Numbered from the stretch's first letter, positions 5,374-27,457 are shown. The stretch: DNA of 34,558 nucleotides from Candidatus Dadabacteria bacterium (GCA_020027805.1 JAHKKQ010000010.1:1-34558), one strand, 5' to 3'. Notes: generated from the sequence alone by a model not told the origin. Numbers and translations: made by a program.

Positions 5374-6882
5374 TTGAGGGCGACAATTGTATGTACCGCT
5401 TTGCTCATGCTTTTTCAGCTCGTCCCCGCCTCGGCCGAGGATAATTCCTACATGTTCGCGGCCGGGGAATCCGCCGCGCCCCACGAACCGGACGACGTAG
5501 TATTGCCCGTAGAGCCGCCGCCGGACGGGAAGCCCGCTCCGAACCCCAGCCTCAGGCCCCCCGGTTTCAAGACCTATATGGAAGACACGGCGATCTGGTA
5601 CGGCGCGCAGTGGGCGGCAAGGCTCTGGTGGGTGAGGGACAAGAACCTGAAGATATTCGACGGCTCGTTCCACACCTTCTGGGACAACCTCACGAGCGAG
5701 CCCATATGGAACGACGGGGACGATTTCGTAGTCAACTGGGTGCTCCACCCGTTCTTCGGCATGCTCCACTACCAGTTCTACAGGGCGAGGGGGCACAGCG
5801 TGTGGGCGTCCGCCCTGGGCTCTGTCATACAGAGCACGCTCTTCGAATACGGGATCGAAGGCTGGGCCGTCAGGCCCTCGGGCATAGACCTCATAGTCAC
5901 GCCCGCACTCGGCGTCCCTCTCGGGTGGACGATGGAGCAGCTCTCCGACTGGCTCATCGAGCAGGACTCGAAGGCCGCGCACGTGGCCGCCTACGTCGCC
6001 AACCCCACGAGGATCTTCGTCAGGGACACGCACTTCGGTCTGATTAACCCGGTGACGGGCTCGTTCCAGTACCAGGGACAGTTCACGATATCGACGACCA
6101 AGGGCAAGTCGCTCGAGCTCGCGTACCCGCACTTCTTCGAGGGCCCCCTGCCTCTCGGCCGTATAGGGATCGACTTCGAGATCATCAAGCTCAAGGAGAG
6201 GCTCGGCGGGGAGTTCATACTATATCCGATGAGGTTCGAGTTCCCGTCCGAGAGCAATTACTGGGGCGTGTACATGGACATACCTTACGGCGGAACGAAC
6301 AACGTGAAGGACGGGGATACGGAGATAAGGGACGGGTTCGAGTTCGGCAACCTCATGGTCGGCGTGAAAACGCTCGCGGCGAAATCGAAAAACTTCGCGA
6401 TATCCGCGGGACTCGAAGCATATTTCCCGACCTCATTCACCGACGACCAGAACAGGCTCCAGCAGATAATAAAATACAGGAGGGACTTCCAGATGTACCT
6501 CTACAAGGCCGCGACCGTTTCGCCGTACCTCACGGCGGGGGCGTGGGAGGGGCCCTTCAGCATACAGGGCGCCCTGGGTACGGACTTCATATTCAACGCG
6601 GATCACTTCGAAGGGCAGGACTTCGAGTTCAGGATCAATTACCACGCGGCCGCGGGGCTAGACGTCCCCATGGTCGGCTCGCCCATAGTTTACTGCGAGT
6701 TCGACGGCTACTCGATTACGACATATGACGGCGCGGGAGGGGGCACGGACCTCTTCCTCACCCCGGGCATTAGGTTCGGTAAAAAGTACAGCCCCGGCTT
6801 CTCGGCCCAGCTCCCCGTTTACGGGCCTACGAAGGACATCGCCGACGCCGATTTCGTGTTCGACTTCCAGCTCCGGTTCTGA
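5374..6882 (+). CDS. DUF3943-like domain plus C-terminal beta-barrel-like region, exported (paralog 2, TTG start)
   Basis: Collinear with 3558-5069 (W.DGD.F..NWV.HP, DGFEF.N, RFG.K.SPGF); ends FDFQLRF; GGAGG RBS. Confidence 0.8.
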   Translation: MRATIVCTALLMLFQLVPASAEDNSYMFAAGESAAPHEPDDVVLPVEPPPDGKPAPNPSLRPPGFKTYMEDTAIWYGAQWAARLWWVRDKNLKIFDGSFHTFWDNLTSEPIWNDGDDFVVNWVLHPFFGMLHYQFYRARGHSVWASALGSVIQSTLFEYGIEGWAVRPSGIDLIVTPALGVPLGWTMEQLSDWLIEQDSKAAHVAAYVANPTRIFVRDTHFGLINPVTGSFQYQGQFTISTTKGKSLELAYPHFFEGPLPLGRIGIDFEIIKLKERLGGEFILYPMRFEFPSESNYWGVYMDIPYGGTNNVKDGDTEIRDGFEFGNLMVGVKTLAAKSKNFAISAGLEAYFPTSFTDDQNRLQQIIKYRRDFQMYLYKAATVSPYLTAGAWEGPFSIQGALGTDFIFNADHFEGQDFEFRINYHAAAGLDVPMVGSPIVYCEFDGYSITTYDGAGGGTDLFLTPGIRFGKKYSPGFSAQLPVYGPTKDIADADFVFDFQLRF

Positions 6883-10077: not shown

Positions 10078-10571
10078 GTCATCGAGAGACCGTCTTCTGG
10101 TCGTGGCGATCTTGCTTTTCGTTGTCATTCCCGCGGAAGCGGGAATCCATATCTTTAAATCAAAATAAGAAAAGACTGGATTCCCGATTAAAGATTTCGG
10201 GAATGACAGAAAAGAAAAGGGTGAGATTGCCGCGCGCTTCACGCCCTCCGGAACAGAAAAGACAAAAATGTTTTTCTTCTTTTCCTTTATGAAAAGACAC
10301 GCATTGTGTGTTTTATGGAACGACAAAGAAAAGAGAAAGGCTGTTTTGTTATTCTTCTTTTCCTCGATGAAAAGAAGCATAATTCTGTAATGTCGTGAAA
10401 GAAAACTCCGCCCTTCGACCCTTCGACAAGCTTCCGTCTTCGCTATCCTCCTATGCTAAAGCTTCGGAGGATAAAAGGCTACGCCGGACAATCAGGGTGA
10501 ACGGGTCTGGCTTCGTTGCTGGTTTGAGCGGAAGAGATTCGGAAGAATCGTAGAGTCACACTACGTGCGTG
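10078..10571. repeat. Mosaic array of REP-like palindromes
   Basis: GTCATCG..GGCGATCT 10078-10112; inverted pair GTCATTCCCG..GGGAATCCA 10124-10149/10177-10207; CTTTTCC..GAAAAG units; CCCTTCGACAAGCT..CAGGGTGAACGG with nested insert; GGAAGAATCGT..CACAC tail. Confidence 0.85.
10433..10492 (+). mobile_element. 60-nt nested palindromic insert (copy 1)
   Basis: Removing it restores CCCTTCGACAAGCT|CAGGGTGAACGG, which is uninterrupted at 13284-13309. Confidence 0.8.
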
Positions 10572-11408: not shown

Positions 11409-11536
11409 ACCCCCTCACCCTACTATTTTGGCTAAGGCATCGACGTACCGGAATTAATTATCAATTCTGCCTTCGCTGTAAGAGCGACCAATTCCTCGTT
11501 CGCTCGGAATTGTTTCCCCTCGAAGGGGAGAGGGGA
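11409..11536 (+). repeat. CCCCTCACCCT..CCCCT..GGGGAGAGG palindrome carrying a ~92-nt insert
   Basis: Uninterrupted relative at 25522-25560; insert ~11421-11512 ends GACC-AATTCC-loop-GGAATT-G. Confidence 0.75.
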
Positions 11537-11545
11537 ATGTAGTAT

Positions 11546-11569
11546 ATCGCAACTGGAAGCCGCTCCTAC
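11546..11569 (-). repeat. GTAG-type REP
   Basis: Reverse complement GTAGGAGCGGCTTCCAGTTGCGAT; sister at 15237-15260. Confidence 0.8.
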
Positions 11570-11593
11570 AGATGGGAGATCCGGAGCCTCCTC

Positions 11594-13000
11594 CTACTTC
11601 TTCGTACCCGGCTCTGTCATCGACCAGGGGTCCAATAACTGCTTCAGCTTCTCGGCCGGGAGCACCTTCTTCTCGAGCGCGACCTGCCTCACCGTTTTTC
11701 CGGTTTCGTAGGCCTCCTTCGCTATCTTCGCGGCGCTGTCGTATCCGATTACGGGGGCGAGGCTCGTGCACATGGCGAGGCTCTTCTCTATCATCTCCTC
11801 GCACCGCTTTTTATCGGCCTTAATCCCCTTCACGCACTTGTCGGTGAATACCTGGGAGACCTTGCCCAGGAGCTCTATAGACTGGAGCAGGTTGTGTCCC
11901 TTGACGGGCATCATGACGTTAAGCTCGAAGTTCCCGAACTGTCCGCCTATCGTTATGGTGAGGTCGTTCCCGATGACCTGAGCCGCGACCTGGCACACGG
12001 CTTCGGGAATTACCGGGTTCACCTTGCCCGGCATGATCGACGAGCCCGGCTGGACCGCGGGTATTATTATCTCCCCTATGCCGCAGCGGGGGCCGCTCCC
12101 GAGCCACCTTATGTCGTTCGCAATCTTCATCAGGCTCACAGCGAGGGTCTTGAGAGAGCCGCTCGCCTCGACCACGGCGTCCTTCGAGCCCTGGGCCTCG
12201 AAATGGTTCTCGGCCTCATAGAGCCTGGTGCCCGTCATCCTGCTGAGCCTCCCGGCGACGAGCCCGGCGAATTTCGGGTGCGTGTTTATGCCGGTGCCCA
12301 CGGCAGTACCGCCGATTGCGAGCTCCGACAGCTCTTCCCTCGCGTGCTCCACCCTTTTGATCCCGTGCTTTATCATGCTCGCGTAGCCGCTGAACTCCTG
12401 TCCGAGCCTTATGGGCGTCGCGTCCTGGAGGTGCGTGCGCCCGATCTTCACTATCTTGTCGAACTCGCGCGCCTTCGCCGAGAGCGCCTTCTCGAGGTTC
12501 CTTAACGAGGGCAGGAGCAGGTCGTTTATCGCGAGTATTGCGGATACGTGTATGGCGGTCGGGTAGACGTCGTTACTCGACTGCCCCATGTTCACGTGGT
12601 CGTTCGGATGTATCCCCGACTTGTCCCCTTTCTTGCCGCCTATGATCTCGTTCGCGCGGTTGGCTATGACTTCGTTCGTGTTCATGTTCGTCGATGTGCC
12701 TGAACCCGTCTGGAATACGTCGAGCACGAAATGGTCGTCGAGCTTCCCGTCGATGACTTCCCTCGCCGCCCTTACTATAGCGGCCCCGGCCTTCTTGCCG
12801 AGAAGTCCCAACTGCATGTTGGACTCGGCCGCGGCTAATTTAATCATCCCCATGGCCTTTATCAGAAGGCTGTGCTTGCGTATTCCGCTGATGGGGAAAT
12901 TCTCTATCGCCCTCGCGGTCTGGGCTCCGTAATATGCGTTCGAGGGGACTTCCATCTCCCCCATCGAATCGTATTCAGTTCTCGTAGATTTGCTGGCCAT
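11594..13000 (-). CDS. fumC: Class II fumarate hydratase
   Basis: GSGTSTNMN, GQSSND, KIGRTHLQDA, GSSIMPGKVNP motifs. Confidence 0.96.
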   Translation of the reverse strand: MASKSTRTEYDSMGEMEVPSNAYYGAQTARAIENFPISGIRKHSLLIKAMGMIKLAAAESNMQLGLLGKKAGAAIVRAAREVIDGKLDDHFVLDVFQTGSGTSTNMNTNEVIANRANEIIGGKKGDKSGIHPNDHVNMGQSSNDVYPTAIHVSAILAINDLLLPSLRNLEKALSAKAREFDKIVKIGRTHLQDATPIRLGQEFSGYASMIKHGIKRVEHAREELSELAIGGTAVGTGINTHPKFAGLVAGRLSRMTGTRLYEAENHFEAQGSKDAVVEASGSLKTLAVSLMKIANDIRWLGSGPRCGIGEIIIPAVQPGSSIMPGKVNPVIPEAVCQVAAQVIGNDLTITIGGQFGNFELNVMMPVKGHNLLQSIELLGKVSQVFTDKCVKGIKADKKRCEEMIEKSLAMCTSLAPVIGYDSAAKIAKEAYETGKTVRQVALEKKVLPAEKLKQLLDPWSMTEPGTKK

Positions 13001-13069
13001 AAAACTCCTCCTTGGCTTCTGTGTTTAGGGAGAGATAATTATGCCATAACGGGGATATTTTTCTAATTG

Positions 13070-13376
13070 GCACACAAAGTGTGGGTTTATGAAAAGACAG
13101 AGAAAGCTAAATTTATTTCTTCTTTTCCTTGATGAAAAGAAGCAAAAATCATCCGACTACAGTATTAGCTAAAAATCTCACGTACTCGCTAAATCTTCCA
13201 ATTCTGCCCCATCCCGTGGAAGATTTTTAACGCTCGTACAATCGATTTTCTTGACGCAAATTCTGTAATGTCGGAAATAATCACCCTTCGACAAGCTCAG
13301 GGTGAACGGGTTGGTTTCGGTTGATGGTTGAGCGGTGGAGTTGGAAGGAACCGTATATGCGCCACACATTACGTGC
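13070..13376. repeat. Mosaic repeat array: CTTTTCCTTGATGAAAAG unit, ~124-nt imperfect hairpin, empty CCCTTCGACAAGCTCAGGGTGAACGG and conserved tail
   Basis: TCCGACTACAG (13152) pairs with CTGTAATGTCGGA (13263-13275); inner TCTTCCA/TGGAAGA; parts shared with 1-115 and 10275-10571. Confidence 0.8.
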
Positions 13377-13381
13377 TGCGC

Positions 13382-15091
13382 TCACACATTAAAGAACAGC
13401 CTTATCTTCACGTCCTCGTGTTTCGCCGAGGTCTCGATCCTGTCGGGATAGACCCCGGTGAGGAAATCCTTTATGCCGTGGACGAACGCGTCCTCCTCCA
13501 TGAAATGACTGTGCTTCGCTCCGACCGCGGGGAGCGCGAGCAGCGTCCCCTTGTATTCGATTATTATTTCGAGATAGACCTCGTCGTATTCGGCCTCTAT
13601 TTTTATAGGTCCGTGCGGGAGGTTAGCCTCCGTCAGGTGCTCGATTATCTGCTCCGTAGACGAAACGGCGTGCTCGATTATCTCGTCGTCGAGCCTCCAT
13701 TCCCTTTCGCGGGATTTCAGGTGCTCACGGAGGTGCTCGCACGACTGGAGCGACTTATCGTACATGAGCACGTCCTTTTTCTTAATGCCGAGTCTGAATA
13801 TGAGGACGAGGACGACCGACGAGATGAGGGCGAGAGAAAGCGTCGTATCCGTCATGAGCTTAAGCCATTCGGGGAAACTATCGAAATAACCATGGAAAAC
13901 CTTCCTGCCTATCCCGAGGAGGAGCGATACGCCTACGACGTAAGTCATTCTGGAGTCGAGGTTCCTCGTCGTCATTATCTCGATACCGCCCGAGATCATG
14001 AACGCTCCGCTCACGACGAGCGACGCGCCTACGACCGAAAGCGGCAGCATCAGGAAGAGGGCCGATATCTTCGGGAAGAATGCGAGCACGATGAGGAATA
14101 TGCCGGTCGGGAAAGCCATGTAACGGCTCGTCGAGCCCGCGGCCTGCGACAGCCCGACTATTCCCGGCGTCGCGTTCATGCCCGGAGCGCCCATGAGGCC
14201 CCCCAGCATGCAGCCTATCCCGTCCGCCAGCATGCCCTTCTTTATCGGTCCGTAATCGGGTCTCTTCCAGTCCAGATCGTTTATCTTCTCCGCCGTCGTT
14301 ACTACACCTATCGTCCTCAGTGACGCGGCTATTCCCGCCGTAAGGAATGCGGGGATGAGCGAGGCGTTGAAGCTGTAGGATATATAGCTCGGATCGGGGA
14401 GCGCGAATATCGCCGAGTTCTTGAACAATTCGATCGAGCTTGGAGGCACGATGCCCAGGAATATGGCTATCACGAAACCCGCCGCTATTCCGAAAAGCGA
14501 GCAGAGGAGCCTTAGTATCCCTTTGAACCAGATACTGAACCCCATGATGATAGAGATGGCTATGACCCCTACTAGCAGGTTCTCCGTATACTGCGGCTTG
14601 CCGAACCCTTTGACGTCGAGCAGGTTGCCGAGTGCCACGAGGCCGAGCTCGATGCCGATAACGAGCACTATGAAGCCCGAGACCGCCGGAGGGAAAACGG
14701 GTTTCAGCCGCCTGATGAATATCGATACCAGGACCTCGACCGCCCCGGCGAATATGGTCATGGCGAATACCGCCGGGAGCCCGCCCGCCTTGACTGCAAG
14801 AACCGACGGGGCCAGGTATACCGCCGAATAGACCGGGGACGCGAAATATCCGGACCCTATCGGCCCCTTCCACAGGGACTGCAGGATCGTCGCTATGCCG
14901 ATGGCTATCATCCCCATGCTTATGGCGTTCGCCGTCACTTTCTCGGGCACGTCGCCGTAGCTCGCGATGAGCACTATGTAGACGAGTGTGACCGCGATGT
15001 AGACCGTGAACTGGAACCCGAGCGGGATGAGCCTCGCGATCGGGGGCATTTCCGCGACTGAGTATATGAGGTCCTTCGGCTTAGTGGTCAG
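13382..15091 (-). CDS. NCS2/NAT (xanthine/uracil) family permease with soluble C-terminal extension; probable CTG start
   Basis: Many TM segments, FPP.V.G, G.LADG.G, FFPKI motifs; frame extends upstream of ATG 15049 to CTG 15091 (TTKPKDLIYSVAEMPP) with GAGGG 7 nt upstream. Confidence 0.85.
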   Translation of the reverse strand: MTTKPKDLIYSVAEMPPIARLIPLGFQFTVYIAVTLVYIVLIASYGDVPEKVTANAISMGMIAIGIATILQSLWKGPIGSGYFASPVYSAVYLAPSVLAVKAGGLPAVFAMTIFAGAVEVLVSIFIRRLKPVFPPAVSGFIVLVIGIELGLVALGNLLDVKGFGKPQYTENLLVGVIAISIIMGFSIWFKGILRLLCSLFGIAAGFVIAIFLGIVPPSSIELFKNSAIFALPDPSYISYSFNASLIPAFLTAGIAASLRTIGVVTTAEKINDLDWKRPDYGPIKKGMLADGIGCMLGGLMGAPGMNATPGIVGLSQAAGSTSRYMAFPTGIFLIVLAFFPKISALFLMLPLSVVGASLVVSGAFMISGGIEIMTTRNLDSRMTYVVGVSLLLGIGRKVFHGYFDSFPEWLKLMTDTTLSLALISSVVLVLIFRLGIKKKDVLMYDKSLQSCEHLREHLKSREREWRLDDEIIEHAVSSTEQIIEHLTEANLPHGPIKIEAEYDEVYLEIIIEYKGTLLALPAVGAKHSHFMEEDAFVHGIKDFLTGVYPDRIETSAKHEDVKIRLFFNV

Positions 15092-15236
15092 GTTCGGACC
15101 CTCACTCGAAAACGAGATAAACGAATCTACTTAAAGAAGAGCAGCATTTCAACAGGCGGTTGTGCCTTCGTGCGGCTCACTTTTCATCTCGACGCGGCTC
15201 TACGGGTCTTCCTGGAGATTCCCGATCCTCAAATCT

Positions 15237-15260
15237 GTAGGAGCGGCTTCCAGCCGCGAT
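15237..15260 (+). repeat. GTAG-type REP
   Basis: GTAGGAGCGGCTTCCAGCCGCGAT; stem GCGGCT/AGCCGC. Confidence 0.8.
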
Positions 15261-15350
15261 TAAACCCGATTATCGCACCAGGATGGTGCTCCTACAGGGG
15301 TAGGAGAATGACGGAGCAAATGGAGCGTGCGAGGCGGCAGGGCGAAACAT

Positions 15351-15376
15351 TAAAACTTTCTCCCTTTTCCATCGTA
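15351..15376 (+). promoter_or_regulatory. ECF (sigmaW-like) promoter of the sigma gene
   Basis: TAAAAC-N16-CGTA ~40 nt upstream of the sigma start; matches the promoter at 17322. Confidence 0.75.
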
Positions 15377-15417
15377 TAATTAATCGTATATCACATGTGA
15401 TCTGAAACGGGTATCCG

Positions 15418-16053
15418 GTGTTTGGAACAAATACGAAAAGCGGGTTGTCGGACGAAGAAGCGATGCGGAAATTTCAAAACGGCGACGAGGGGAGCTTCGA
15501 CCTCCTCTTGGGCCGGCACGGGGCCGGAGTGCTCAGGTTCGTTATCAGGATGACCGGGGCGGAGAAGGCGCAGGCCGAGGACCTGCTCCAGGAGATCTTC
15601 ATGAAGGTGATAGAGCGGAGGAAGAAGTACGACCCGGGCCAGAAGTTCTCGACCTGGCTCTACAGCATAGCGCGGAACCACTGCATAGATTATCTGCGGA
15701 CGGAGAGCTACAGGAGGCACAGCTCGCTCGACGCACCCATATCGGTTGAGGAGGAGGGCGGGGCGGTCGTAATCGACCTGGTCAGGAGCGGGGACAGGGA
15801 CCAGGAGGAGAGGGCCTTCGACCTCGAGGTGAAGGAGCTTATCGACATTGGCGTGAGAGGGTTGAAAGAGGAGTTCAGGGAAGTATTTTTATTAAGAGAG
15901 ATAGAAGGGCTTTCGTTTGAGGAGATAGCCGCGGTCACGGCGTCGCCGCTCGGCACGGTAAAGAGCCGCTTGAGATACGCGTACAAGGGGCTCCGGCAGG
16001 TGTTCGCGGAGTCCGGGTATTTCGAGGAAAGACAGAAAGCGAAAGGGGTGTGA
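15418..16053 (+). CDS. ECF RNA polymerase sigma factor
   Basis: AEDLLQEIF, FSTWLYSIARNHCIDYLR (region 2), EGLSFEEIA..GTVKSRL (region 4). Confidence 0.95.
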   Translation: MFGTNTKSGLSDEEAMRKFQNGDEGSFDLLLGRHGAGVLRFVIRMTGAEKAQAEDLLQEIFMKVIERRKKYDPGQKFSTWLYSIARNHCIDYLRTESYRRHSSLDAPISVEEEGGAVVIDLVRSGDRDQEERAFDLEVKELIDIGVRGLKEEFREVFLLREIEGLSFEEIAAVTASPLGTVKSRLRYAYKGLRQVFAESGYFEERQKAKGV

Positions 16054-16062
16054 AGGGATAAT

Positions 16063-17070
16063 ATGAACTGCGAGAGATGCAGCGAATCGTTAATAGAATA
16101 CATGCACGGCGGTCTCGACCCCGAGGAAAGGCAGGCCGTGGCCGCGCACTTGGGCGGCTGCGAGGAGTGCGCCCGCGAATTCGAGGAGTACGCCGAGATA
16201 AGGAGGGCCGTGACTGAGGAACCCGTCCTGCCCGAGCCCTCGCGCGAGGTCATGGCCCGGCTGTCGAAGGCGGCAAGGGACGACGTCGCCCGCGAGAGGC
16301 GCCCCTTCTGGAAGAGGCTCCCTCTTTCCCCCATACTGATCCCCGCTCTAACGACCGCCGTAGCGCTCATGGTCTGGTTCTATTACGGACAGGGCGGCGG
16401 GGGGTACATGGATACGATGTCCCGCGACGTAATGGCGAGGAAGATGAAGGAGCAGGACAGCAGTATGGAGACGGCAGGGCAGGCCGCGCCCGAGATGAGG
16501 CGGGAATATCCCGTTGAGGCCGAATCTTCGCCCGCGATGAGCGAGAGAGGGGCGGCTGACGAGGTTATGCCGGCGGCTCCCGCGCCGCCTCAGGCGGACT
16601 TGTATTCCCTTTCCGACAAAGCGCCAGGCGCGTCCGCCGGAACTGAAGAAGATTCGGACGTTAAGGAAGAAGCGCTCTCCGAAACGGCGGCCAAAAAATC
16701 CGCGCCCGCGCTGCCCCTCCCCCAGGCTGAATCGCTATCGGCGGGCGACACAAAGGATTACGGCGGCATCCTGAGCCTCGCGCTCAGGCAGCAGACGGAG
16801 GGGGACTGCGACGCTTCGATAAGGACGAACGAGATACTGCTCCAGTCATATCCCGAGCCCCCCGCGGACATGCAGGCGCGGTCGTACCGCTCTCTCGCCG
16901 AGTGCTACGAGAAGCAGGGGAAGCTCGACCTGGCTGTCGCGAACTACACGCAGCTCCGGCAGATTGCACCCGAAGAGAGCTCGCTCGCCGATACCCGGAT
17001 CCTCGAGATCAGGCAGAGGTCCGTGCATAAGCTCGGGAGCGTCGGCCCCACGCCCGGGCCCGCGGAATAA
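16063..17070 (+). CDS. Zinc-binding anti-sigma factor (zf-HC2) with one TM helix and C-terminal TPR-like region
   Basis: HLGGCEEC (HxxxCxxC); TM ILIPALTTAVALMVWFYY; low-complexity linker; LAECYEKQGKLDLAVANY TPR-like motif. Confidence 0.9.
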   Translation: MNCERCSESLIEYMHGGLDPEERQAVAAHLGGCEECAREFEEYAEIRRAVTEEPVLPEPSREVMARLSKAARDDVARERRPFWKRLPLSPILIPALTTAVALMVWFYYGQGGGGYMDTMSRDVMARKMKEQDSSMETAGQAAPEMRREYPVEAESSPAMSERGAADEVMPAAPAPPQADLYSLSDKAPGASAGTEEDSDVKEEALSETAAKKSAPALPLPQAESLSAGDTKDYGGILSLALRQQTEGDCDASIRTNEILLQSYPEPPADMQARSYRSLAECYEKQGKLDLAVANYTQLRQIAPEESSLADTRILEIRQRSVHKLGSVGPTPGPAE

Positions 17071-17141
17071 CGCCGGTCTCGATTTTTGTTCCTGGAGAAT
17101 CTCTGCCGTTCCGGCTTACCCCACTCGTAAGTCCCTGCGGC

Positions 17142-17221
17142 GTCATTTCGAACGCAGGTGAGAAATCTATATTCTGTTTGTTTTGCTTTAATAACGGATT
17201 TCTCCCTCCGGTCGAAATGAC
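17142..17221. repeat. Inverted pair of GTCATTTCG REP-like palindromes
   Basis: GTCATTTCGAACGCAGGTGAGAAATCT ... GATTTCTCCCTCCGGTCGAAATGAC. Confidence 0.8.
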
Positions 17222-17321
17222 GATATAAAGAATTATCCGTGTCCCGTTCTAAATTAAAAAACTTCACATCCGTGTGGGCGGCTTTCAGCCGCCACATTCT
17301 TAAATACACACATTGTGTGTG

Positions 17322-17347
17322 TGAAACTTTCCGCCCTCCCGTTCGTA
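17322..17347 (+). promoter_or_regulatory. ECF (sigmaW-like) promoter of the pspA-vWA operon
   Basis: TGAAAC-N16-CGTA, the B. subtilis sigmaW consensus, 33 nt upstream of the pspA-like ATG. Confidence 0.8.
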
Positions 17348-17380
17348 CTAATCCTTAAATCCGCAGTAAGGAGAAAAGTT

Positions 17381-18046
17381 ATGGGATTAAAGAAGCGAGT
17401 GGGACTTATCATGAGGTCCCAGTTGAACGACTGGGTGTCGAGGGCTGAGGACCCGGAGAAGATCCTGAACCAGGCCGTGGAGGAGATGGAGGAGGGTCTC
17501 GAAAGGGCGAGGGTGAAGATAGGCGCGCTCAGGTTCAGGATAGACGAGCAGGAGAAGCTCTTAAAGAGGCTCGGGGAGCAGGCGGAGTACTGGCGGGAGA
17601 GGGCGGAGGACTACGTGAAGAGAAATATGGACGAGAACGCGGTCGAGGCCGTAAGAAAAAAGAGGACGCTCGAAGAGAAAGAGAGGAAGCTCGCCCTTAC
17701 GCAGTCAGGCGACAGGGCGAAGCTCACGGACTACGAAGGGCGCTATGCGGACCTCGAGAGGAGAGTGGAGACCGCGAAGACGAAGAGGACGCTCCTTCTT
17801 AAAGAGATCATCGTCATGAAGGGAGCGCCCGCGGGGAAGGAGGATATCACCGGAGGCGCCGGATCCCGCACCAATGAACCATTCGATATTTTCAGGAAGG
17901 TCGAGGAGCGGATCACTGAAGAGACCGTGCTCTTCGCCGCTGACGGTGAAAGGGAGAGGGATGAGCGTGAGCGCGAGGCCCGGCTCGTTCAGGAAGAGGT
18001 GGAAAGCATGAAAAAGAATCTCAGCAAGGGAGGCGGTAAGAAATGA
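17381..18046 (+). CDS. PspA/IM30 family protein
   Basis: AEDPEKILNQAVEEM motif and long coiled coil; AAGGAG RBS before ATG 17381. Confidence 0.88.
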   Translation: MGLKKRVGLIMRSQLNDWVSRAEDPEKILNQAVEEMEEGLERARVKIGALRFRIDEQEKLLKRLGEQAEYWRERAEDYVKRNMDENAVEAVRKKRTLEEKERKLALTQSGDRAKLTDYEGRYADLERRVETAKTKRTLLLKEIIVMKGAPAGKEDITGGAGSRTNEPFDIFRKVEERITEETVLFAADGERERDEREREARLVQEEVESMKKNLSKGGGKK

Positions 18047-19455
18047 ACAGGCTGAACAGCAAGGTCGTAATCGGAATTTTTCTTCTCGTATTAGCCGCGC
18101 TCGCGGGAGGGAAATACATCTCGGCGTTCCCGACAATACCCAAACCGGTGGATAAAGACATGAATACGAAAACGGATTCGAATACGGATACCGTGACGTG
18201 GGACATCAAATTGAGCCACCCATACGTCGAGACGGGCTCACTCAGGGAGCTTATGCTCAATATGAAGATAAAGGGGAAGGACGCGCAATTGAAAGAGAGG
18301 ACCCCTGTAAACCTCGTGCTCGTGATAGACAGGAGCGGGTCGATGGGCGACAAGGGGAAGATCGAATACGCGAGAGAGGCGGCGAAGCAGATAATCGCGG
18401 GACTCGGCAAGGAAGACAGGCTCGCGGTGGTCGCATATTCGACCGACGTCGAGCTTCTATACCCGATACAGTTACTCACGGATAAGGACAGGGCTTCTTC
18501 AGTCGTGAGCGCGCTCTATCCTACCGACTCGACCAATCTGTCGGGAGGGCTCGTCATGGGGATTGAGCAGCTCGATTCGGTCAAGCGGGACGGGTACGTG
18601 AACCGCCTCATCCTCCTCTCTGACGGCCTCGCCAACGCGGGGATTACCGACATCGGCGAGCTCGGCAGGGTCGCGAGCCGGGCGTCCGAGAAGGGCATAC
18701 ACATAACCACCATGGGGCTCGGCGTCGATTACGACGAGAACCTCATGATGAACCTCGCCGAGCACGGTGCGGGCAATTATTACTTCATAGAGTCCCCGGC
18801 GCAGCTTGCCGGAATCTTTCGGAAGGAGTTCGGTCAGATCGCGGCCACGGTCGCAAAGGACCCTGTGATCAGGATCGGGCTCGCGCCGGGCGTATCGATA
18901 GAGGAGGTTTACGGATACACGTTCACGAAAACCCCGGACGGCGTTACCGAGATAAAGCTCGGCGACTTCTTCGGCGGTCAGGAGAGGGACATACTCGTTA
19001 AATTGAAGGTGCCGGCCGGGACTGCAGGACAGAATGACCTCGGGAAAGCCGTGCTCGATTTTAAAGACCTGCTCGATAACGAGAAGCCCGCGGGCCTGAT
19101 ATCCCCGCTCTCTTACGAAGTGACCGGCGACAGGGACAAGGTCGCCCGGAACGAGAACAAGGACGTAACGGCGAGATGGGTTTCGGTCGATGCCTCGGGC
19201 GATTACTACCAGGCGACGACGGCTTACGAAGAGGGAGACAAGGATAGCGCAATTACCAGGCTCAAGAGGGCGTACGAGAACATCACCAGCCTCAACATGA
19301 GTCCCTACAAGAGCGCCAGGACAGTAGAGCAGGAGGCCGAGCTCAGGGACGCCCTCGATGTCATGTCGTCCCCGGCCGCCCCCGCGCCGGCATCGGGTGA
19401 GGGAAAGGCATTGATAAAGGAGCAGAAGGCGAGCGCGAGGGAGGCTCAGAAGTAG
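18043..19455 (+). CDS. Membrane-anchored vWA-domain protein (YfbK-like)
   Basis: MIDAS DRSGSM...T...LSDG; N-terminal hydrophobic anchor; ATGA overlap with the pspA-like gene. Confidence 0.92.
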   Translation: MNRLNSKVVIGIFLLVLAALAGGKYISAFPTIPKPVDKDMNTKTDSNTDTVTWDIKLSHPYVETGSLRELMLNMKIKGKDAQLKERTPVNLVLVIDRSGSMGDKGKIEYAREAAKQIIAGLGKEDRLAVVAYSTDVELLYPIQLLTDKDRASSVVSALYPTDSTNLSGGLVMGIEQLDSVKRDGYVNRLILLSDGLANAGITDIGELGRVASRASEKGIHITTMGLGVDYDENLMMNLAEHGAGNYYFIESPAQLAGIFRKEFGQIAATVAKDPVIRIGLAPGVSIEEVYGYTFTKTPDGVTEIKLGDFFGGQERDILVKLKVPAGTAGQNDLGKAVLDFKDLLDNEKPAGLISPLSYEVTGDRDKVARNENKDVTARWVSVDASGDYYQATTAYEEGDKDSAITRLKRAYENITSLNMSPYKSARTVEQEAELRDALDVMSSPAAPAPASGEGKALIKEQKASAREAQK

Positions 19456-19467
19456 GTTTCCCAGATC

Positions 19468-19632
19468 GTCATTGCGAGTGAAGCGAAGCAATCTCGCTTT
19501 ATTCATGAGATTGCCGCAGTCGCAAAATACTTAAGTTCTCTCGGGTTAATTCCCGGAGCAAATGGACATCTACGCATTGTAAGCACCAGTGACCGGTTCT
19601 TACGCTTGCTCGGAACCGTTCCTCGCAATGAC
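19468..19632. repeat. Inverted GTCATTGCGAG REP pair; right copy carries a 97-nt insert (19524-19620)
   Basis: GTCATTGCGAGTGAAGCGAAGCAATCTC then GAGATTGCCGCAGTCGC-[insert]-CCTCGCAATGAC. Confidence 0.85.
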
Positions 19633-19675
19633 AACTAGTTTTGGTAAAGAGACAAATATCAGTAAGGAGATTCAA

Positions 19676-20290
19676 ATGAAAGCCTCAATAAAATCATTCA
19701 TAGTGCCGGTGCTCCTCTCGGGCGGGTGGGGGGCGGTAACGCTGCTCCTGGGCTATGTCTTTCTGAATAACGTCCCGCTCGGGTACATGTTCTTCTATCC
19801 TATGCTCCTCACGGGGGTAGCAGTCGCTGCGAGCGCCGGTAGGCCGGGGGGCATGTCGTACGCGCGGGCTGGGATAACGGGGCTTGTATCGGGGTTCATA
19901 TACCTCCTGGTCTCGCCCATGTTCCCTGTCTTCGCATCCATACTCGTGGGGGCGTGTCTCGGCGGAGGTCTCTCTCCCGGAGGGGGCAGGTTCGGGGGTC
20001 TTCTCAACGGGACCATCTCGACTCTCAAGGGTATGATAATCATTCCTCTGGTAATAACGTCGGGCGAGTTCCTTGGCGCCGCGATAATGATTTTTCTCGG
20101 CTCTCTGTTGCTGGCGGCGGTCTTCTGGGGCGCGTGGCTCGGTATGGGCGTGTGTCTTATCCGTTTTCCTTTGTTCGGAAAGAAACGCGGGGACGAAGAT
20201 CACCGGCTGATATCCGGGCTCGAAGAGTTCAGATCGGAGTCGAGGGAGATAGCGAGGGACCTCGGGGAGTTTAATGAGAAGGCCGGTTGA
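19676..20290 (+). CDS. Gly-rich multi-pass membrane protein, hypothetical
   Basis: AAGGAG RBS before ATG 19676; about 6 hydrophobic segments, charged C-terminal tail. Confidence 0.8.
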   Translation: MKASIKSFIVPVLLSGGWGAVTLLLGYVFLNNVPLGYMFFYPMLLTGVAVAASAGRPGGMSYARAGITGLVSGFIYLLVSPMFPVFASILVGACLGGGLSPGGGRFGGLLNGTISTLKGMIIIPLVITSGEFLGAAIMIFLGSLLLAAVFWGAWLGMGVCLIRFPLFGKKRGDEDHRLISGLEEFRSESREIARDLGEFNEKAG

Positions 20291-20448
20291 GCGATCCCGA
20301 CCGGGGCTGATTAAAAGCGGTCTGGAAACCGCATTTTGACCCAATCAACTACTCAATATCCCCCGCCGTTTTTATGGCGAAATTAATGTGTTACTAAAGG
20401 TATTCCATATATCCTCGAATTGCTGTAAAATAAGTAAAATAGAGGAGG

Positions 20449-21183
20449 ATGACCGGAATGAGGCACTTCACCCTTATTACACTGCTAATCTTTTCAATGG
20501 CTCTGGTTTATGGGATTACCGGCTCGCCTTATTGTGAAGCGGCCGATACCCGCACTCAATCGGACGCAGTCAGTCCTGACCAGGTTGAGACAATGGACGG
20601 CGCGCTCGAAGTGAAGGAGGAAGACATCGAGCCCGAACCCCAGCGCCTGTACTGCGCCGCGCAGTGGACAATGCTCTATAAGGGGCAAAAGGCGGACATC
20701 GAGGTCACGACGCGGGGGCAGTACAACGAGATCGCGGTATTCAGCTGCCCTGACTGCAGCCTCGACGAGCATTACGTAAAACCGTTCCTCGAGACCGAGT
20801 ACAGGGGCAAGACCGGGCTCACGAGGCTCCACGAATGCGGCTTCACGCAGGCTGTGTTCAAGGGGATGAGGGGGACGGAGGCGATAGTAGTCGACGTGCC
20901 GCGTGTATTCCCCGACCCGAACAGGCTCGTATGCATTGACGACTGGAGTAAGGACTACCAAAAGAATTATCCGACAATACAGATTTCATCGAGGGGCGAG
21001 CTTGACGAGGTAATCGTTTTCTCCTGCCTGAACTGCCCGTTTCAGAAGTCCTTCATCGCGCCCTTCCTGCTCACCGTATCCGACGGCAGGACGGCCATGG
21101 AGCGGATGAAGCAGTGCGGCTTCACCGAGATAGTGTTTACGAACCCCATGGGCACGAGGGAAGTCGTGAGGGAAGTGCGCTAG
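20449..21183 (+). CDS. Exported hypothetical protein with two ~93-aa Cys-containing repeats
   Basis: Signal peptide; RL.C...W, RG...E..VFSC..C, PFL and CGFT each occur twice. Confidence 0.82.
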   Translation: MTGMRHFTLITLLIFSMALVYGITGSPYCEAADTRTQSDAVSPDQVETMDGALEVKEEDIEPEPQRLYCAAQWTMLYKGQKADIEVTTRGQYNEIAVFSCPDCSLDEHYVKPFLETEYRGKTGLTRLHECGFTQAVFKGMRGTEAIVVDVPRVFPDPNRLVCIDDWSKDYQKNYPTIQISSRGELDEVIVFSCLNCPFQKSFIAPFLLTVSDGRTAMERMKQCGFTEIVFTNPMGTREVVREVR

Positions 21184-21272
21184 GCGGCGCTTGACAAAAA
21201 GCCGATTCAGAATAGCTTGCTCATGCGGCCGGCATACTAGGGCGCGATTCCTGAATCCGAGGAGCATAACCT

Positions 21273-21491
21273 GTGGGCGAGGTCGGAACGTTCCCCTTCG
21301 GCTGGGTGAGGGGAGAGGGCAGCGACAACTGGCAGATTATCTGGGACCCGAAGACGAAGACCGTATTCGCCGAGGGCGCTATATCTAAAAGGGTCCTCCG
21401 GTTGGGGGAGTCCTCCACGTGGGAAGACGCCAAGCGTTTCGCCGACACAGTGATGAGCGAGCCCGGGGGTTATTTTTCCGATCCTGCATGA
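21273..21491 (+). CDS. Small hypothetical protein (GTG start)
   Basis: 72 aa, GAGGAG upstream, host-like codon usage. Confidence 0.6.
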   Translation: MGEVGTFPFGWVRGEGSDNWQIIWDPKTKTVFAEGAISKRVLRLGESSTWEDAKRFADTVMSEPGGYFSDPA

Positions 21492-21584
21492 ACCCCTTCC
21501 GTCGAACTATGTCTCGATCAATTATCGAGCTATTCTCCGAACATAATCTCTGCTAAAATAGAGCCTAACCAGTTTTATGCACCT

Positions 21585-21841
21585 GTCATCGCGAGAGCTG
21601 CTCTGATGAATAAGAAGAGCAGGTCGACATTGGCTGAATACTGTGCACCTATATGCTAAGGCACATAGAAGATTAATACAGAATAAAAGTGGTCGTGACG
21701 ATCTGTATTTTTTTCTTGAGATTGCCGCGGTCGCAAAGTAATTTGGTTTATGTGACTCAGGAACATTGATGAAGGGGCTTATTCGCACTTAGCCGAGGGC
21801 GTCCGATTTCTGCGCACGCTCGAAATCGTCCTCGCAATGAC
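21585..21841. repeat. Inverted GTCAT(C/T)GCGAG REP pair, both copies carrying ~93-95-nt inserts
   Basis: GTCATCGCGAGA-[insert]-GGTCGTGACGATCT (empty form 10078-10112) and GAGATTGCCGCGGTCGC-[21735-21829]-CCTCGCAATGAC. Confidence 0.85.
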
Positions 21842-23761: not shown

Positions 23762-24042
23762 GTCATCGCGAGTAGCGACTTGTCCGGTGTAGCCTTTTAT
23801 CCTCCGAAGCTTTTGCATAGGAGGAATGCGAAGCCGGAAGCTACGTGGCGATCTCATCTTTTTCGTCATCCTGAACCATGTCCCGGACCCGATCCGGGAT
23901 CTATTCAGGATCTCATCTTTTTTATCACCATGCCCGTCCTTCGACAGGCTCGGGACGAACGGAGTGGCGAGTCGCCACGGACATACGAGATGTTGGCAGG
24001 GCCGAGGAGGTTGGGAAGGATCGTATATGAGCGCACATCGTG
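23762..24042. repeat. Mosaic REP array with nested inserts, running into the lhgO start
   Basis: GTCATCGCGAG REP with 60-nt insert; GTCATCCTGAAC REP with inner hairpin (23865-23914); CCTTCGACAGGCTCGGGACGAACGG plus tail. Confidence 0.85.
23779..23838 (-). mobile_element. 60-nt nested palindromic insert (copy 2, different host REP)
   Basis: Removing it restores GAGATCGCCACGTAGCT|TCGCTACTCGCGATGAC on the minus strand. Confidence 0.8.
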
Positions 24043-25283: not shown

Positions 25284-25560
25284 GTCATGCTGAACTTGTT
25301 TCAGCATCTCGTCTTTTATTCTTTTCTCCCTCCTTTTGTAAAGGAGGGTGAGGGTGGATTTTGCCCTAACGCATTCCGGTCTATTAATACATTCTTCTAT
25401 TTCTAACATAAACTTGATGCTTCTTAAAACCCATATAAAATTACTAGGGTTCGTGAGGGGATAGTTTAAAAATATCATCCTTCGACAAGCTCAGGACGAA
25501 CGGGAATATATAGCTAAGGTGCCCCCTCACCTTAATCCTCTCCCACGCTGGGGAGAGGAA
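25284..25560. repeat. Four different uninterrupted REP-like palindromes
   Basis: GTCATGCTGAACTTGTTTCAGCATCTC 25284-25310; CCCTCCTTTTGTAAAGGAGGG ~25325-25361; CCTTCGACAAGCTCAGGACGAACGG 25479-25503; CCCCCTCACC..GGGGAGAGG 25522-25560. Confidence 0.8.
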
Positions 25561-25608
25561 ATTGTGTATTGGAGATCCAGAGGAGTTTGGTGCGCTCCGA
25601 GGTAGCTG

Positions 25609-27263: not shown

Positions 27264-27457
27264 CCTTCGACCCTTCGACCCTTCGACAAGCTTCCGGCTT
27301 CGCTATCCTCCTATGCTAAAGCTTCGGAGGATAAAAGGCTACGCCGGACAAGCAGGGCGAACGGGGCGGCGAGTCGCCGGGGACATACGAAAATGCCGCA
27401 TTTGCCGGTTTAGGCTGAGGAGGTGCGGAAGGATCGTATACGAGCACACAATGTGTG
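27264..27457 (+). repeat. CCTTCGAC(x3)-REP with nested 60-mer and conserved GGAAGGATCGTATA..CACAC tail
   Basis: First half nearly identical to 10411-10504; second half similar to 23958-24042. Confidence 0.85.
27293..27352 (+). mobile_element. 60-nt nested palindromic insert (copy 3)
   Basis: Lies between GACAAGCT and CAGGGCGAACGG. Confidence 0.8.

Follow-up and report, generated by a model that had tools for sequence, protein, structure and literature searches.

The four inserts that interrupt REP-type palindromes in this stretch of DNA (34,558 nucleotides from a Candidatus Dadabacteria bacterium, referred to below as the window) are members of one old and diverged non-coding family of about 92 nt. 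The explanation that we favour, with somewhat better than even confidence, is that the family is a lineage-specific, non-coding and non-autonomous insertion element. Such an element would be orientation-specific, hairpin-targeting and mobile, and would probably be handled as single-stranded DNA.

All four inserts had been noticed in an earlier sequence-only reading of the window, and all four were recovered by the family profile and covariance model used here. The host palindromes, together with short versions at 19468-19495, 25522-25562 and 10078-10112, were likewise as that reading had described them. The features are as follows:

11422-11514 (alternative start 11418), plus strand: element copy 1, 93 nt, found by nhmmer and the covariance model (76.3 bits)
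11423-11433, plus strand: 5' motif of copy 1, CTATTTTGGCT
11484-11514, plus strand: GCGACC box, hairpin AATTCC/GGAATT and GTT of copy 1
11410-11539, plus strand: host palindrome of copy 1, left part CCCCCTCACCCTA (11410-11422), right part TCCCCTCGAAGGGGAGAGGGGAATG (11515-11539)
19526-19620 (alternative start 19523), plus strand: element copy 2, 95 nt, found by nhmmer
19589-19620, plus strand: box and hairpin GGTTCT/GGAACC of copy 2
19507-19632, plus strand: host palindrome of copy 2, left part GAGATTGCCGCAGTCGC (19507-19523), right part CCTCGCAATGAC (19621-19632)
19468-19495: inverted short partner of the copy 2 host palindrome
21596-21687 (alternative end 21692), minus strand: element copy 3, 92 nt, found by nhmmer
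21596-21628, minus strand: box and hairpin TGCTCT/AGAGCA of copy 3
21585-21595 and 21689-21705: host arms of copy 3
21737-21830 (alternative start 21732), plus strand: element copy 4, 94 nt, found by nhmmer and the covariance model (74.3 bits)
21798-21830, plus strand: box and hairpin GATTTC/GAAATC of copy 4
21718-21734 and 21831-21841: host arms of copy 4
25522-25562, plus strand: unfilled short palindrome of the CCCCTCACC type
10078-10112, plus strand: unfilled short palindrome of the GTCAT...GCGATCT type

Against the family profile the four copies have nhmmer E-values of 7e-12 to 2e-16. The earlier description of a G(A/T)CC box, of four stems that differ and still pair, and of a loop ending in GCTC in three of the four copies holds. 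Copy 2, whose 5' part is the most divergent of the four, is spanned by public DNA contigs from three runs; its host is a CGTC-tagged REP read on the opposite strand, and the corresponding position in the closest relative (G009) holds a REP doublet without an insert. Unfilled paralogues of the copy 1 host palindrome are present in the same genome.

Architecture of the family and its hairpin

Three search rounds that started from a profile of 10 copies gave 84 matches in the genome at E ≤ 0.01, with 72 remaining at E ≤ 1e-5, and 55 of the copies are near full length. Read from 5' to 3', the element consists of a TATTTTGG motif, a variable middle, a TTGCAWTCAGCCAAGGGCGWCC box, a covarying 6-bp stem that carries a conserved loop of 10-12 nt, and a terminal GT(T/A). 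Of the 55 near-full copies, 54 measure 88-94 nt between TATTTTG and their last base, in agreement with the constant core length first reported. The accompanying claim that the cores share little sequence did not survive, since the copies can be aligned almost without gaps, with a median pairwise identity of 49% (1485 pairs). Because this identity is so low, the majority of copies may be ancient and no longer mobile. The possibility that the cores are an old, decayed and already catalogued family is correct in its first part, as they do align as one old family; as to its last part, the family is absent from Rfam.

The hairpin is 93.4% paired (53 copies), while controls slid along the alignment are 26-56% paired, and double changes occur in five of its six pairs. 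There are 94 double-sided changes, compared with 28.4 in shuffled data, and none of 500 shuffles reaches the observed number, which bears out the covariation suspected from the four stems. Further outward, the hairpin is extended by a C:G pair (50 of 53 copies), a conserved C.T mismatch and a W:W' pair (40 of 53 copies, nine double changes) that reaches the last base. A second conserved helix was not found, the 5' TTTTGG/AGCCAA pairing being only 68.5% paired; the clear internal stems noted in individual copies do exist there, but are specific to those copies rather than conserved. Terminal inverted repeats are absent (the first and last 16 nt match at 6.0 of 16 positions, vs. 5.8 when shuffled; 54 copies), as is target duplication (the longest junction repeat averages 3.0 nt, vs. 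2.6 nt in the control).

Two known classes were considered and rejected on these grounds. A classical MITE, i.e. a deletion derivative of a DDE element, would fit the small size, non-coding nature and many copies, but not the lack of terminal inverted repeats and target-site duplication. Integron attC sites are made of paired R''(RYYYAAC) and R'(GTTRRRY) boxes that close a long imperfect hairpin, whereas here the stem is only 6-9 bp, the GTT is followed by pyrimidine-rich host sequence and there is no 5' AAC box.

Insertion sites and spread

An empty orthologous site was sought and was found for copy 1 in G009, where window positions 11422-11516 are missing between flanks that are 93-94% identical and the site reads CCCCCTCACCCT GACCCTC TCCCTCGAAGGGGAGAGGGG. 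This is the one clean pair of filled and empty orthologous sites; in other intergenic regions turnover is too great for alignment with congeners. When filled and empty sites are compared, about four (3-5) target bases are seen to be replaced, and we know of no transposition chemistry that replaces some four target bases.

The element has a fixed orientation inside hairpin-forming DNA, which is either a REP-type palindrome or the 3' hairpin of an older copy. There are at least five host palindrome types, with a common CC-N4 motif at the left junction, which falls 4 nt after the CC; of the 55 left flanks, 41 have a C at position -6 and 40 have one at -5 (0.80-0.85 bits, vs. at most 0.25 elsewhere). 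Twelve of the 55 near-full copies are nested, in every case with the left junction 4 nt into the 5' arm of the older copy, and in nine of them the right side continues with 8 nt left over from the loop, then with the 3' arm and GTT. In another MAG a nest three deep was seen.

When the genome and its relatives were scanned with the covariance model, at least 68 matches were obtained in the genome itself (among 70 scored of 462 candidates), and 31 of 61 relatives were positive, almost all of them within one bacterial family. All nine congeners have matches, eight with 58 to at least 70 each and the most fragmented with 21; G006 has at least 142 (150 candidates scored). In 26 of 28 genomes from other families of the same order the model has no match. 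These counts, together with the covariation of the hairpin and the nearly constant length, rule out a chance resemblance among the inserts. The element is also present on two phage contigs, with 15 copies on the one that encodes a terminase and 7 on the one that has a tail tube gene; these 22 copies in 39 kb correspond to one per 1.4-2 kb. A full-text search of the literature found no description of the ~92-nt family.

The empty site, the self-nesting, the many hosts with one junction motif and the family-wide and phage-contig copies all agree with the non-autonomous, palindrome-targeted element that the sequence-only reading had proposed. Pairs of copies with 94-97% identity, whose distal flanks are unrelated to each other, indicate recent movement. 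In such an element both ends would be cis sites for a recombinase or nuclease supplied in trans, with the middle acting as a fixed-length spacer. The hairpin would be read as a single-strand structure, most likely on the strand opposite to the one written here, to which the excess of A.C over G.T mismatches in the stem (see below) points. The element's own GWCC-N4 may be a target for further insertion, which would explain the Russian-doll arrays.

Conversion and RNA as alternatives

One may also consider that no dedicated enzyme is involved, and that the inserts are a passive mosaic motif of REP arrays (BIME/NIME-like) spread by ectopic gene conversion or replication template switching, which we regard as rather unlikely. 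The motif would have originated within a palindrome, in one or a few events, and spread with or between homologous palindromes, quasi-palindrome correction would maintain the complementarity of the hairpin, and the element itself might be a host protein-binding or spacer site. Element subfamilies do track host palindrome types, and co-amplification or gene conversion of host and insert together gives the same pattern. Several of the nearly identical copies have the entire host palindrome, though not the distal flanks, in common with their partner, as conversion would predict. Conversion is also consistent with the wholesale change of REP content at orthologous sites between congeners, with the failure to find a transposase that tracks the family, and with the ~20-nt conserved box on the left and the loop, arm and GTT on the right of nested copies, which would be enough homology; the NIME arrays of Neisseria are believed to grow through recombination (PMC1797815). 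In contrast, a single insert family is found in at least five unrelated host palindromes, always with the CC-N4 left junction, which argues for targeted events rather than homology, and a single host type carries 4-5 distinct insert subfamilies. Conserved ends and a fixed length despite 49% identity point to selection on the unit itself, and conversion alone would hardly produce the density and single orientation of the copies on the phage contigs.

A cis-acting or small RNA, in which the insert is part of an intergenic transcript and a protein or another RNA binds to its conserved loop, borne by a variable stem, with a role in processing, stability or termination, seems to us improbable. It would account for a covarying stem that bears a conserved loop, for the position of all 22 phage-contig copies on the gene strand and between genes, and for the intergenic location of all 55 near-full copies in the genome (by crude gene calls). 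Yet in the genome the orientation is mixed, with 27 copies in the same and 20 in the opposite direction to the upstream gene and eight antisense to both neighbours. Folding z-scores for the whole element average -0.67 and none of 20 reaches -2, there is no second conserved helix, and Rfam has no match (none at gathering score in the window, none at E ≤ 1 in 20 copy-bearing loci). The earlier suggestion of a guide cassette or structured ncRNA whose sequence is free therefore finds no support, as only the 3' hairpin is conserved and the interior resembles its own flanks no more closely than those of other copies. Stem mismatches also favour the other strand, for in sense orientation there are 6 G.U pairs in all as against 37 A.C mismatches: A.C exceeds G.T by 18 to 5 in the genome (318 cells), and 85 copies taken from phage contigs and other MAGs give 19 to 1 (503 cells), an indication that folding takes place in the complementary strand. 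Finally, an RNA function would leave the nesting in the element's own hairpin and the empty orthologous site unexplained. As to the mismatch bias itself, it could instead reflect strand-biased C>T mutation and not selection on folding.

Mobilising genes and comparison with known elements

No mobilising gene was found in the MAG that contains the window (93% complete). It has no match to Y1 (neither Pfam Y1_Tnp nor tblastn), IS110, reverse transcriptase, TnpB or serine recombinase, only four tyrosine recombinase matches, and no protein family with more than four close paralogues. Among relatives, Y1 is present in three of nine congeners and none of seven genomes of genus g4, and IS110 (DEDD recombinase) matches in three of nine and one of seven, respectively, counts in which IS copies may have been lost from MAGs. 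Three well-assembled, copy-rich genomes (G006, G007 and G013) have neither. Neither Y1 nor IS110 genes follow the distribution of the element family. G003 and G009 have RAYT-like genes or ORFs, and the REP that flanks these is of another, GTAG type.

REPIN/RAYT systems consist of hairpin-centred non-autonomous elements with a GTAG box and strand-specific recognition of structure. Like these and other elements derived from IS200/IS605, the ~92-nt element is short, abundant, long-persisting, non-autonomous and hairpin-based, without inverted repeats or duplication; it too has a conserved short box 5' of the hairpin (GCGWCC in place of GTAG) and signs of strand-specific, structure-based recognition. 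Unlike a REPIN it is not a pair of inverted REPs, its conserved hairpin is at one end only, no Y1 gene tracks it and about four target bases are lost. An IS200/IS605-type element would have subterminal hairpins at both ends, no inverted repeats or duplication and a fixed sequence at the left flank; here a 3' hairpin, the lack of repeats and a CC-N4 left flank were observed and a conserved 5' hairpin was not, and an element of that type would not be expected to lose target bases.

Dependence on IS110/IS1111, either as a MITE moved by a bridge-RNA recombinase (MITEPpu9/ssr9-like) or as a stand-alone bridge/seek RNA gene, appears very unlikely to us. The lead, which came from the sequence-only reading, is right in that an IS110-family element with one of these palindrome types as its target is present in three of nine congeners, in G004 only 4 nt from a resident ~92-nt copy; moreover, IS copies often fail to assemble in MAGs. 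However, this IS (one type in the genus, its ends taken from a full reading of the G001 and G004 copies) starts TGTATCTTAA and ends GACGGTATCT with a CT core, unlike the TATTTTGG... and ...CCGTT of the ~92-nt element. In G001 the same IS lies in an unfilled palindrome with no ~92-nt copy alongside, and by the boundary that it sets, the G004 copy beside the transposase gene is outside the IS, adjoining it by chance; nor does the covariance model match the IS loci of G001, G003 or G017. The ~92-nt element has no core dinucleotide repeated at its two junctions and loses target bases, and there are well-assembled, copy-rich genomes without IS110. Bridge RNAs are two-loop structures, unlike a single conserved hairpin in 92 nt, and when the interior is compared with its own flanks, the longest match averages 4.0-4.3 nt, as it does with the flanks of other copies (a crude test). 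The IS110 element adjoining one copy is thus a separate REP-targeting IS.

Fixed orientation, REP targeting and the lack of inverted repeats and duplication nevertheless agree with the IS110 family, and MITEPpu9 (the ssr9 module) of Pseudomonas putida resembles our element as a small non-coding module within REP palindromes, with fixed orientation and no inverted repeats, found both alone and beside an IS110 transposase gene; it is regarded as a hitch-hiking selfish element, with A'/B' boxes copied from the IS ends, an AG core and 8 copies in one strain group (PMC12288879). Compared with MITEPpu9 as described there, the ~92-nt element has ends that differ from the local IS110, no repeated core and replaced target bases, and it occurs throughout a bacterial family, in tens to hundreds of copies per genome, and nests in its own hairpin.

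The GTCAT...ATCTC host palindromes fit the CGTC-tagged REPs of Di Nocera et al. (2013) in their CGTC/TGTC head, AT-starting stem and short loop. In that paper such REPs are reported inside other palindromes, have no known transposase, and possess an 8-9-bp stem and a 4-5-nt loop, vs. 6 bp and 10-12 nt in the insert (PMC3733652). Neisserial mosaic elements are similar in forming dynamic intergenic arrays of a short palindrome and non-coding units of 50-150 bp, and their dRS3 palindrome is also the target of an IS110-type recombinase; the RS units lie between whole dRS3 palindromes and belong to more than 100 unrelated families (PMC1797815), whereas the ~92-nt inserts are a single homologous family located inside the palindrome, with a conserved hairpin end of their own.

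A repeat family with a homologous core and a covarying hairpin

The window (contig C85 of a 2.35 Mb MAG of 242 contigs, 93% complete) holds four inserts where the sequence-only reading had placed them, each lying between the two halves of a palindrome:

11422-11514, plus strand: copy of the ~92-nt non-coding element
19526-19620, plus strand: copy of the element
21596-21687, minus strand: copy of the element
21737-21830, plus strand: copy of the element

Unfilled versions of such palindromes (i.e. without an insert) are present nearby, at 19468-19495, 25522-25562 and 10078-10112, and each insert closes with G(A/T)CC and a hairpin, the stems differing among copies and yet pairing, as that reading had also described. 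The neighbours are ordinary housekeeping genes, including those for a short-chain dehydrogenase, a VWA protein and a fumarase that has a Dadabacteria MAG among its nearest homologues (70% identity). The feature is real and non-random. Public DNA contigs from three runs bridge the copy at 19526-19620; for population variants at this copy, the joints listed have sides of 20-25 letters and derive from other repeats, and there was no RNA run among the listed public runs that could inform on expression. Unrelated to the element, two adjacent paralogous genes of ~500 aa each (3558-5069 and 5374-6882), a likely tandem duplication, give rise to repeat families at a spacing of 1810-1813 nt.

When the genome was scanned for the GATTGC...CTCGCAATGAC frame, the loops were mostly of 9-29 nt, with a second class near 100 nt whose members align with the four window inserts. 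A DNA profile made from 10 copies matched about 60 genomic places, and after three profile rounds there were 84 matches at E<=0.01 (72 at E<=1e-5), with 55 near full length. The alignment of these 55 copies is almost gap-free, and has the following parts:

5' end: motif TATTTTGG(Y)TT, then a variable middle
box 5' of the hairpin: TTGCAWTCAGCCAAGGGCGWCC
hairpin: 6-bp stem, loop of 10-12 nt (consensus TYGCGCTTGCTC) and return stem
3' end: terminal GT(T/A)

From TATTTTG to the end, 54 of the 55 copies measure 88-94 nt, and pairwise identity has a median of 49% (1485 pairs). Thus, the earlier statement that length and structure are fixed holds, but the statement that the cores are free in sequence does not, since the near gap-free alignment, the fixed length and this level of identity indicate that the cores are homologous. 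Rfam has no match to the element, either for the window or for the loci holding copies, and full-text searches of the literature gave no description of the family; supplementary files or ISfinder might hold one.

Structure was analyzed on 53 of the 55 near-full copies (alignment A1). The hairpin is 93.4% paired, with double-sided changes in five of its six pairs, whereas controls slid along the alignment are only 26-56% paired. The covariation suspected from four stems is borne out by 94 double-change cells vs 28.4 in shuffles, none of 500 shuffles being as high. RNAalifold predicts the 3' hairpin as the only helix, and mutual information over all column pairs is high only there; a long-range helix (TTTTGG/AGCCAA), 68.5% paired and with little covariation, is unsupported family-wide. 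Outwards, the helix is extended by a C:G pair in 50 of the 53 copies, a conserved C.T mismatch and a W:W' pair in 40 of the 53 (nine double changes), the last of which would place the final base of the element inside the structure. Folding energy of the whole element is unremarkable (mean z -0.67, range -1.90 to +0.73, none of 20 copies reaching -2). Mismatches in the stem are A.C rather than G.T, 18 vs 5 in the own genome and 19 vs 1 among another 85 copies, taken from other MAGs and from phage contigs, counts that overstate the evidence because related copies are not independent. As an A.C mismatch is a G.T wobble on the complementary strand, either the complementary strand is the folding one or it receives C>T changes preferentially.

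Insertion sites and nested copies

An empty orthologous site, such as the sequence-only reading had asked to be looked for, exists in the closest relative, G009. Its flanks are 93-94% identical to the window; the match stops at 11421 and resumes at 11517, with 8 nt between, so that G009 reads CCCCCTCACCCT GACCCTC TCCCTCGAAGGGGAGAGGGG where the window reads CCCCCTCACCCT, the insert ACTATTTTGG...GGAATTGTT, and TCCCCTCGAAGGGG. At the position of 19526-19620 the same relative has a REP doublet (short palindromic repeats) without an insert, and at that of 21596-21830 the relatives have very different repeat content or none. No further filled/empty pair was alignable between the whole window and G009, G006, G003 or G007 (all congeners), because the intergenic regions are too rearranged.

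Within the own genome, the family occupies at least five host frames:

GATTGC...GCAATGAC palindromes
CCTGAA...TTCAGG palindromes
ATTTC/ATTCC...GAAAT palindromes
TTCCCGA...TCGGGAA palindromes
CCCCTCACCC.../ATCCACCCTAAC... types

Copy pairs that are 94-97% identical occupy loci with unrelated distal flanks. Counted from TATTTTG, the left flank has a C at -6 in 41 and at -5 in 40 of the 55 copies, the other positions being uninformative; since this holds across all hosts, the common target feature is CC-N4, which the element's own GWCC box also offers. Twelve of the 55 near-full copies are in fact nested in the 3' hairpin of an older copy. Their left junction always lies 4 nt into the older 5' arm (12/12), and in nine of the 12 the right flank consists of an 8-nt loop remainder, the 3' arm and GTT. 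In another MAG, nesting runs three levels deep, and the right-hand remainders of the three follow one another in reverse order.

Comparison of filled with unfilled paralogues shows that a few target bases are missing and none duplicated: CCTGAA ACGAG TTCAGG becomes CCTGAA[...]G TTCAGG on filling, TAAC CCTC CTTT becomes TAAC[...]CTTT, and nested sites have lost two stem and two loop bases. The copies have no terminal inverted repeats, and junction repeats were not above control.

Distribution among genomes and phage contigs

A covariance model of the element (R1) has at least 68 matches in the own genome (among the best 70 of 462 candidates). It matches all nine congeners, with at least 58-70 matches each in eight and 21 in the most fragmented one, all genomes of three sister genera (7/7, 1/1 and 3/3) and, at lower counts, eight of the ten genomes of a fourth genus. 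Outside the bacterial family, one genome had 21 matches and a further one a single weak match; of the 28 genomes belonging to other families of the order, 26 had none. By genus, copy number is high in g1, g4 and g5, g6 has copies too, and none turned up in the single genomes of g3 and g7. When 185,579 species genomes were scanned for exact matches to the most frequent hairpin variant, 39 stretches were found, about half of them titled Candidatus Dadabacteria and the remainder Thermodesulfobacteriota, Spirochaetia, delta proteobacterium or plain "uncultured bacterium", which we take to be of the same lineage.

The same pattern is also found in two IMG/VR contigs (L224 and L225, from G061 and G062), one with a gene for the large subunit of a terminase and one with a phage tail tube gene. 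These have 15 and 7 R1 matches, one per 1.4-2 kb, and all 22 copies are on the strand bearing the long ORFs. In the phage contig that was read, copies lie inside the same palindrome types as on the chromosome, and a nested copy there uses a different loop point. Element density in these contigs is ~10-20x that of the chromosome, and they hold the whole host palindrome repertoire. A blastn search of plasmid and phage record collections gave no match to copy 4.

G006 has at least 142 matches (among the best 150 of 723 candidates), which are clustered and co-oriented by region. Matches are very dense locally on its contigs C10 (75-222 kb; 47 matches, 40 on the minus strand) and C11 (3.5-8.6 kb; 8/8 on the plus strand). 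The strand pattern does not fit two replichores, and these dense, near-uniform-strand regions may be integrated mobile or prophage DNA; the terminase of the phage contig had no match in G006. With many of its copies at the ends of contigs, the family breaks MAG assemblies; it also cleanly marks genomes of the Dadabacteria type and their phages.

Candidate movers, readings of the mechanism and other repeats

Searches of the own genome for Y1_Tnp, IS110, reverse transcriptase, TnpB zinc ribbon and resolvase were negative; of its four matches to tyrosine recombinases, two have Xer-like scores and the two non-Xer ones are on contigs C4 and C24. No protein family there exceeds four close paralogues and none of these is a transposase, the largest clusters being HD-domain, SDR, glycosidase-like and radical-SAM proteins, and a gene with copies on both sides encodes a DnaB-like helicase. 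Across 61 genomes, neither Y1 nor IS110 tracks the element: Y1 is found in 3/9 congeners and 0/7 genomes of genus g4, IS110 in 3/9 and 1/7, and both are absent from the copy-rich, well-assembled G006, G007 and G013, as well as from the two viral records (both fragments). RAYT-like Y1 ORFs (~154 aa) occur in G003 and G009, but are flanked by a GTAG-type REP (ATCGC..CTGGAAGCCGCTCCTACAG) rather than by the element, and have no counterpart in the own genome; a RAYT was accordingly rejected as the mover. This REP type is also present in the window (11546-11578 and 15228-15297) and at loci L167 and L168.

In the related MAG G004, an R1 match lies directly 3' of an IS110-family gene and the palindrome halves flank the whole unit, which made this IS a candidate parent. 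However, its copy in G001 (77% protein identity) ends 4 nt earlier, at ...GACGGTATCT, inside an unfilled palindrome, TCCCT^AACCC. The IS is therefore a separate REP-targeting element that inserted 4 nt from a resident copy, and its ends do not resemble those of the insert. The IS itself (L163, G001:C119, 1245-2471; L162, G004:C15, ~2186-970, minus strand; recombinase of 327-338 aa) occupies the ATCCTCCCTAACCCTCC...GGAGGG palindrome at TCCCT^AACCC, and its ~200-nt left non-coding end holds a target-like segment (AATCCTCCCTTAG) and a segment like its own right end (GGACGGTATCTTAGG), an arrangement expected of a bridge RNA. A guide cassette, as suggested by the sequence-only reading, found no support, the interior showing no match specific to its own flank; an IS110-dependent or guide-RNA module, having failed every test run (IS ends and own-flank matches), is thus very improbable.

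The other suggestion of that reading, insertion, is supported, and on balance we regard the element as probably non-autonomous and orientation-specific, with conserved ends acting as cis sites and a hairpin that would be read as structure on single-stranded nucleic acid. Junctions without repeats, an orientation that does not vary, and asymmetric mismatches together with the restriction of phage-contig copies to one strand favor a single-strand, HUH-like or structure-directed process over a double-strand DDE one. Its weak points are that no enzyme was found and that we know of no chemistry giving a constant ~4-base loss. The main rival, which we consider rather unlikely, has the element spreading from palindrome to palindrome by conversion or template switching, the arms being kept complementary by quasi-palindrome correction. 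This would account for subfamilies that go with host types and for the absence of a transposase, but leaves the common CC-N4 junction in unrelated hosts unexplained. An RNA role might be read into the single orientation in phage contigs, yet is improbable given that chromosomal copies are oriented 27 same vs 20 opposite, that G.U pairs are nearly absent on the sense strand and that folding is weak.

A more specific form of the insertion reading, which we put forward as speculative, is that the family is a long-lived "hairpin-homing" replicator with a mechanism not described so far. A single-stranded copy would be pasted 4 nt 3' of CC, on the 5' side of a DNA hairpin, replacing four target bases, and would be handled by an unrecognized enzyme or by host replication and hairpin-processing functions. 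Nested arrays would then arise because the element's own GWCC-N4 hairpin is a target, and the element would have invaded its hosts' phages, with all copies on one strand.

The element is best filed among small palindrome-associated mobile repeats. The nearest described case is MITEPpu9/ssr9, a small REP-located module that depends on the transposase of ISPpu9 (IS110) and is found on its own as well (PMC12288879). The palindromes that host the present element belong by their features to the superfamily of CGTC-tagged REPs, a large class that has no known transposase and in which REPs inside other palindromes have been noted (PMC3733652); neisserial NIME arrays (PMC1797815) are a looser parallel. 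Two oddities deserve follow-up, namely that ~4 target bases are replaced and that phage contigs are so heavily loaded with copies in a single orientation. In many uncultured bacteria the intergenic DNA is full of small palindromic repeats. The present family is unusually readable among them, since its ends are clear, its target motif is defined, the small loss of target bases is constant and nested insertions record the order of events. The enzyme or process, if found, would explain the spread of such repeats and might reveal a compact, structure-directed DNA insertion system.

A third palindrome type in the window (CCCTTCGACAAGCT...TCAGGGTGAACGGG; 10411-10505 and 27271-27365, 97% identical, and inverted at 23779-23842) carries a different loop insert of ~60 nt, which contains a GCTACGCCGGACAA motif and a hairpin of its own (CCTCC...GGAGG), and is a second kind of filled REP. 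A hairpin family, TTCTTCTTTTCCTYGATGAAAAGAAGCA, lies at 71-104, 10274-10307, 10352-10385 and 13117-13150, the last followed by a conserved stretch of ~120-150 nt (13151-13275) whose end in G009 is the GGGCGTCC-hairpin module also seen in the 92-nt element; this 3' module thus seems to be common to a second, longer family. Just upstream of palindrome arrays there is a motif, AATTCTGTAATGTCGG (10385-10400 and 13258-13275; also L194, L205 and L225), that occurs in the own genome, other MAGs and a phage contig.
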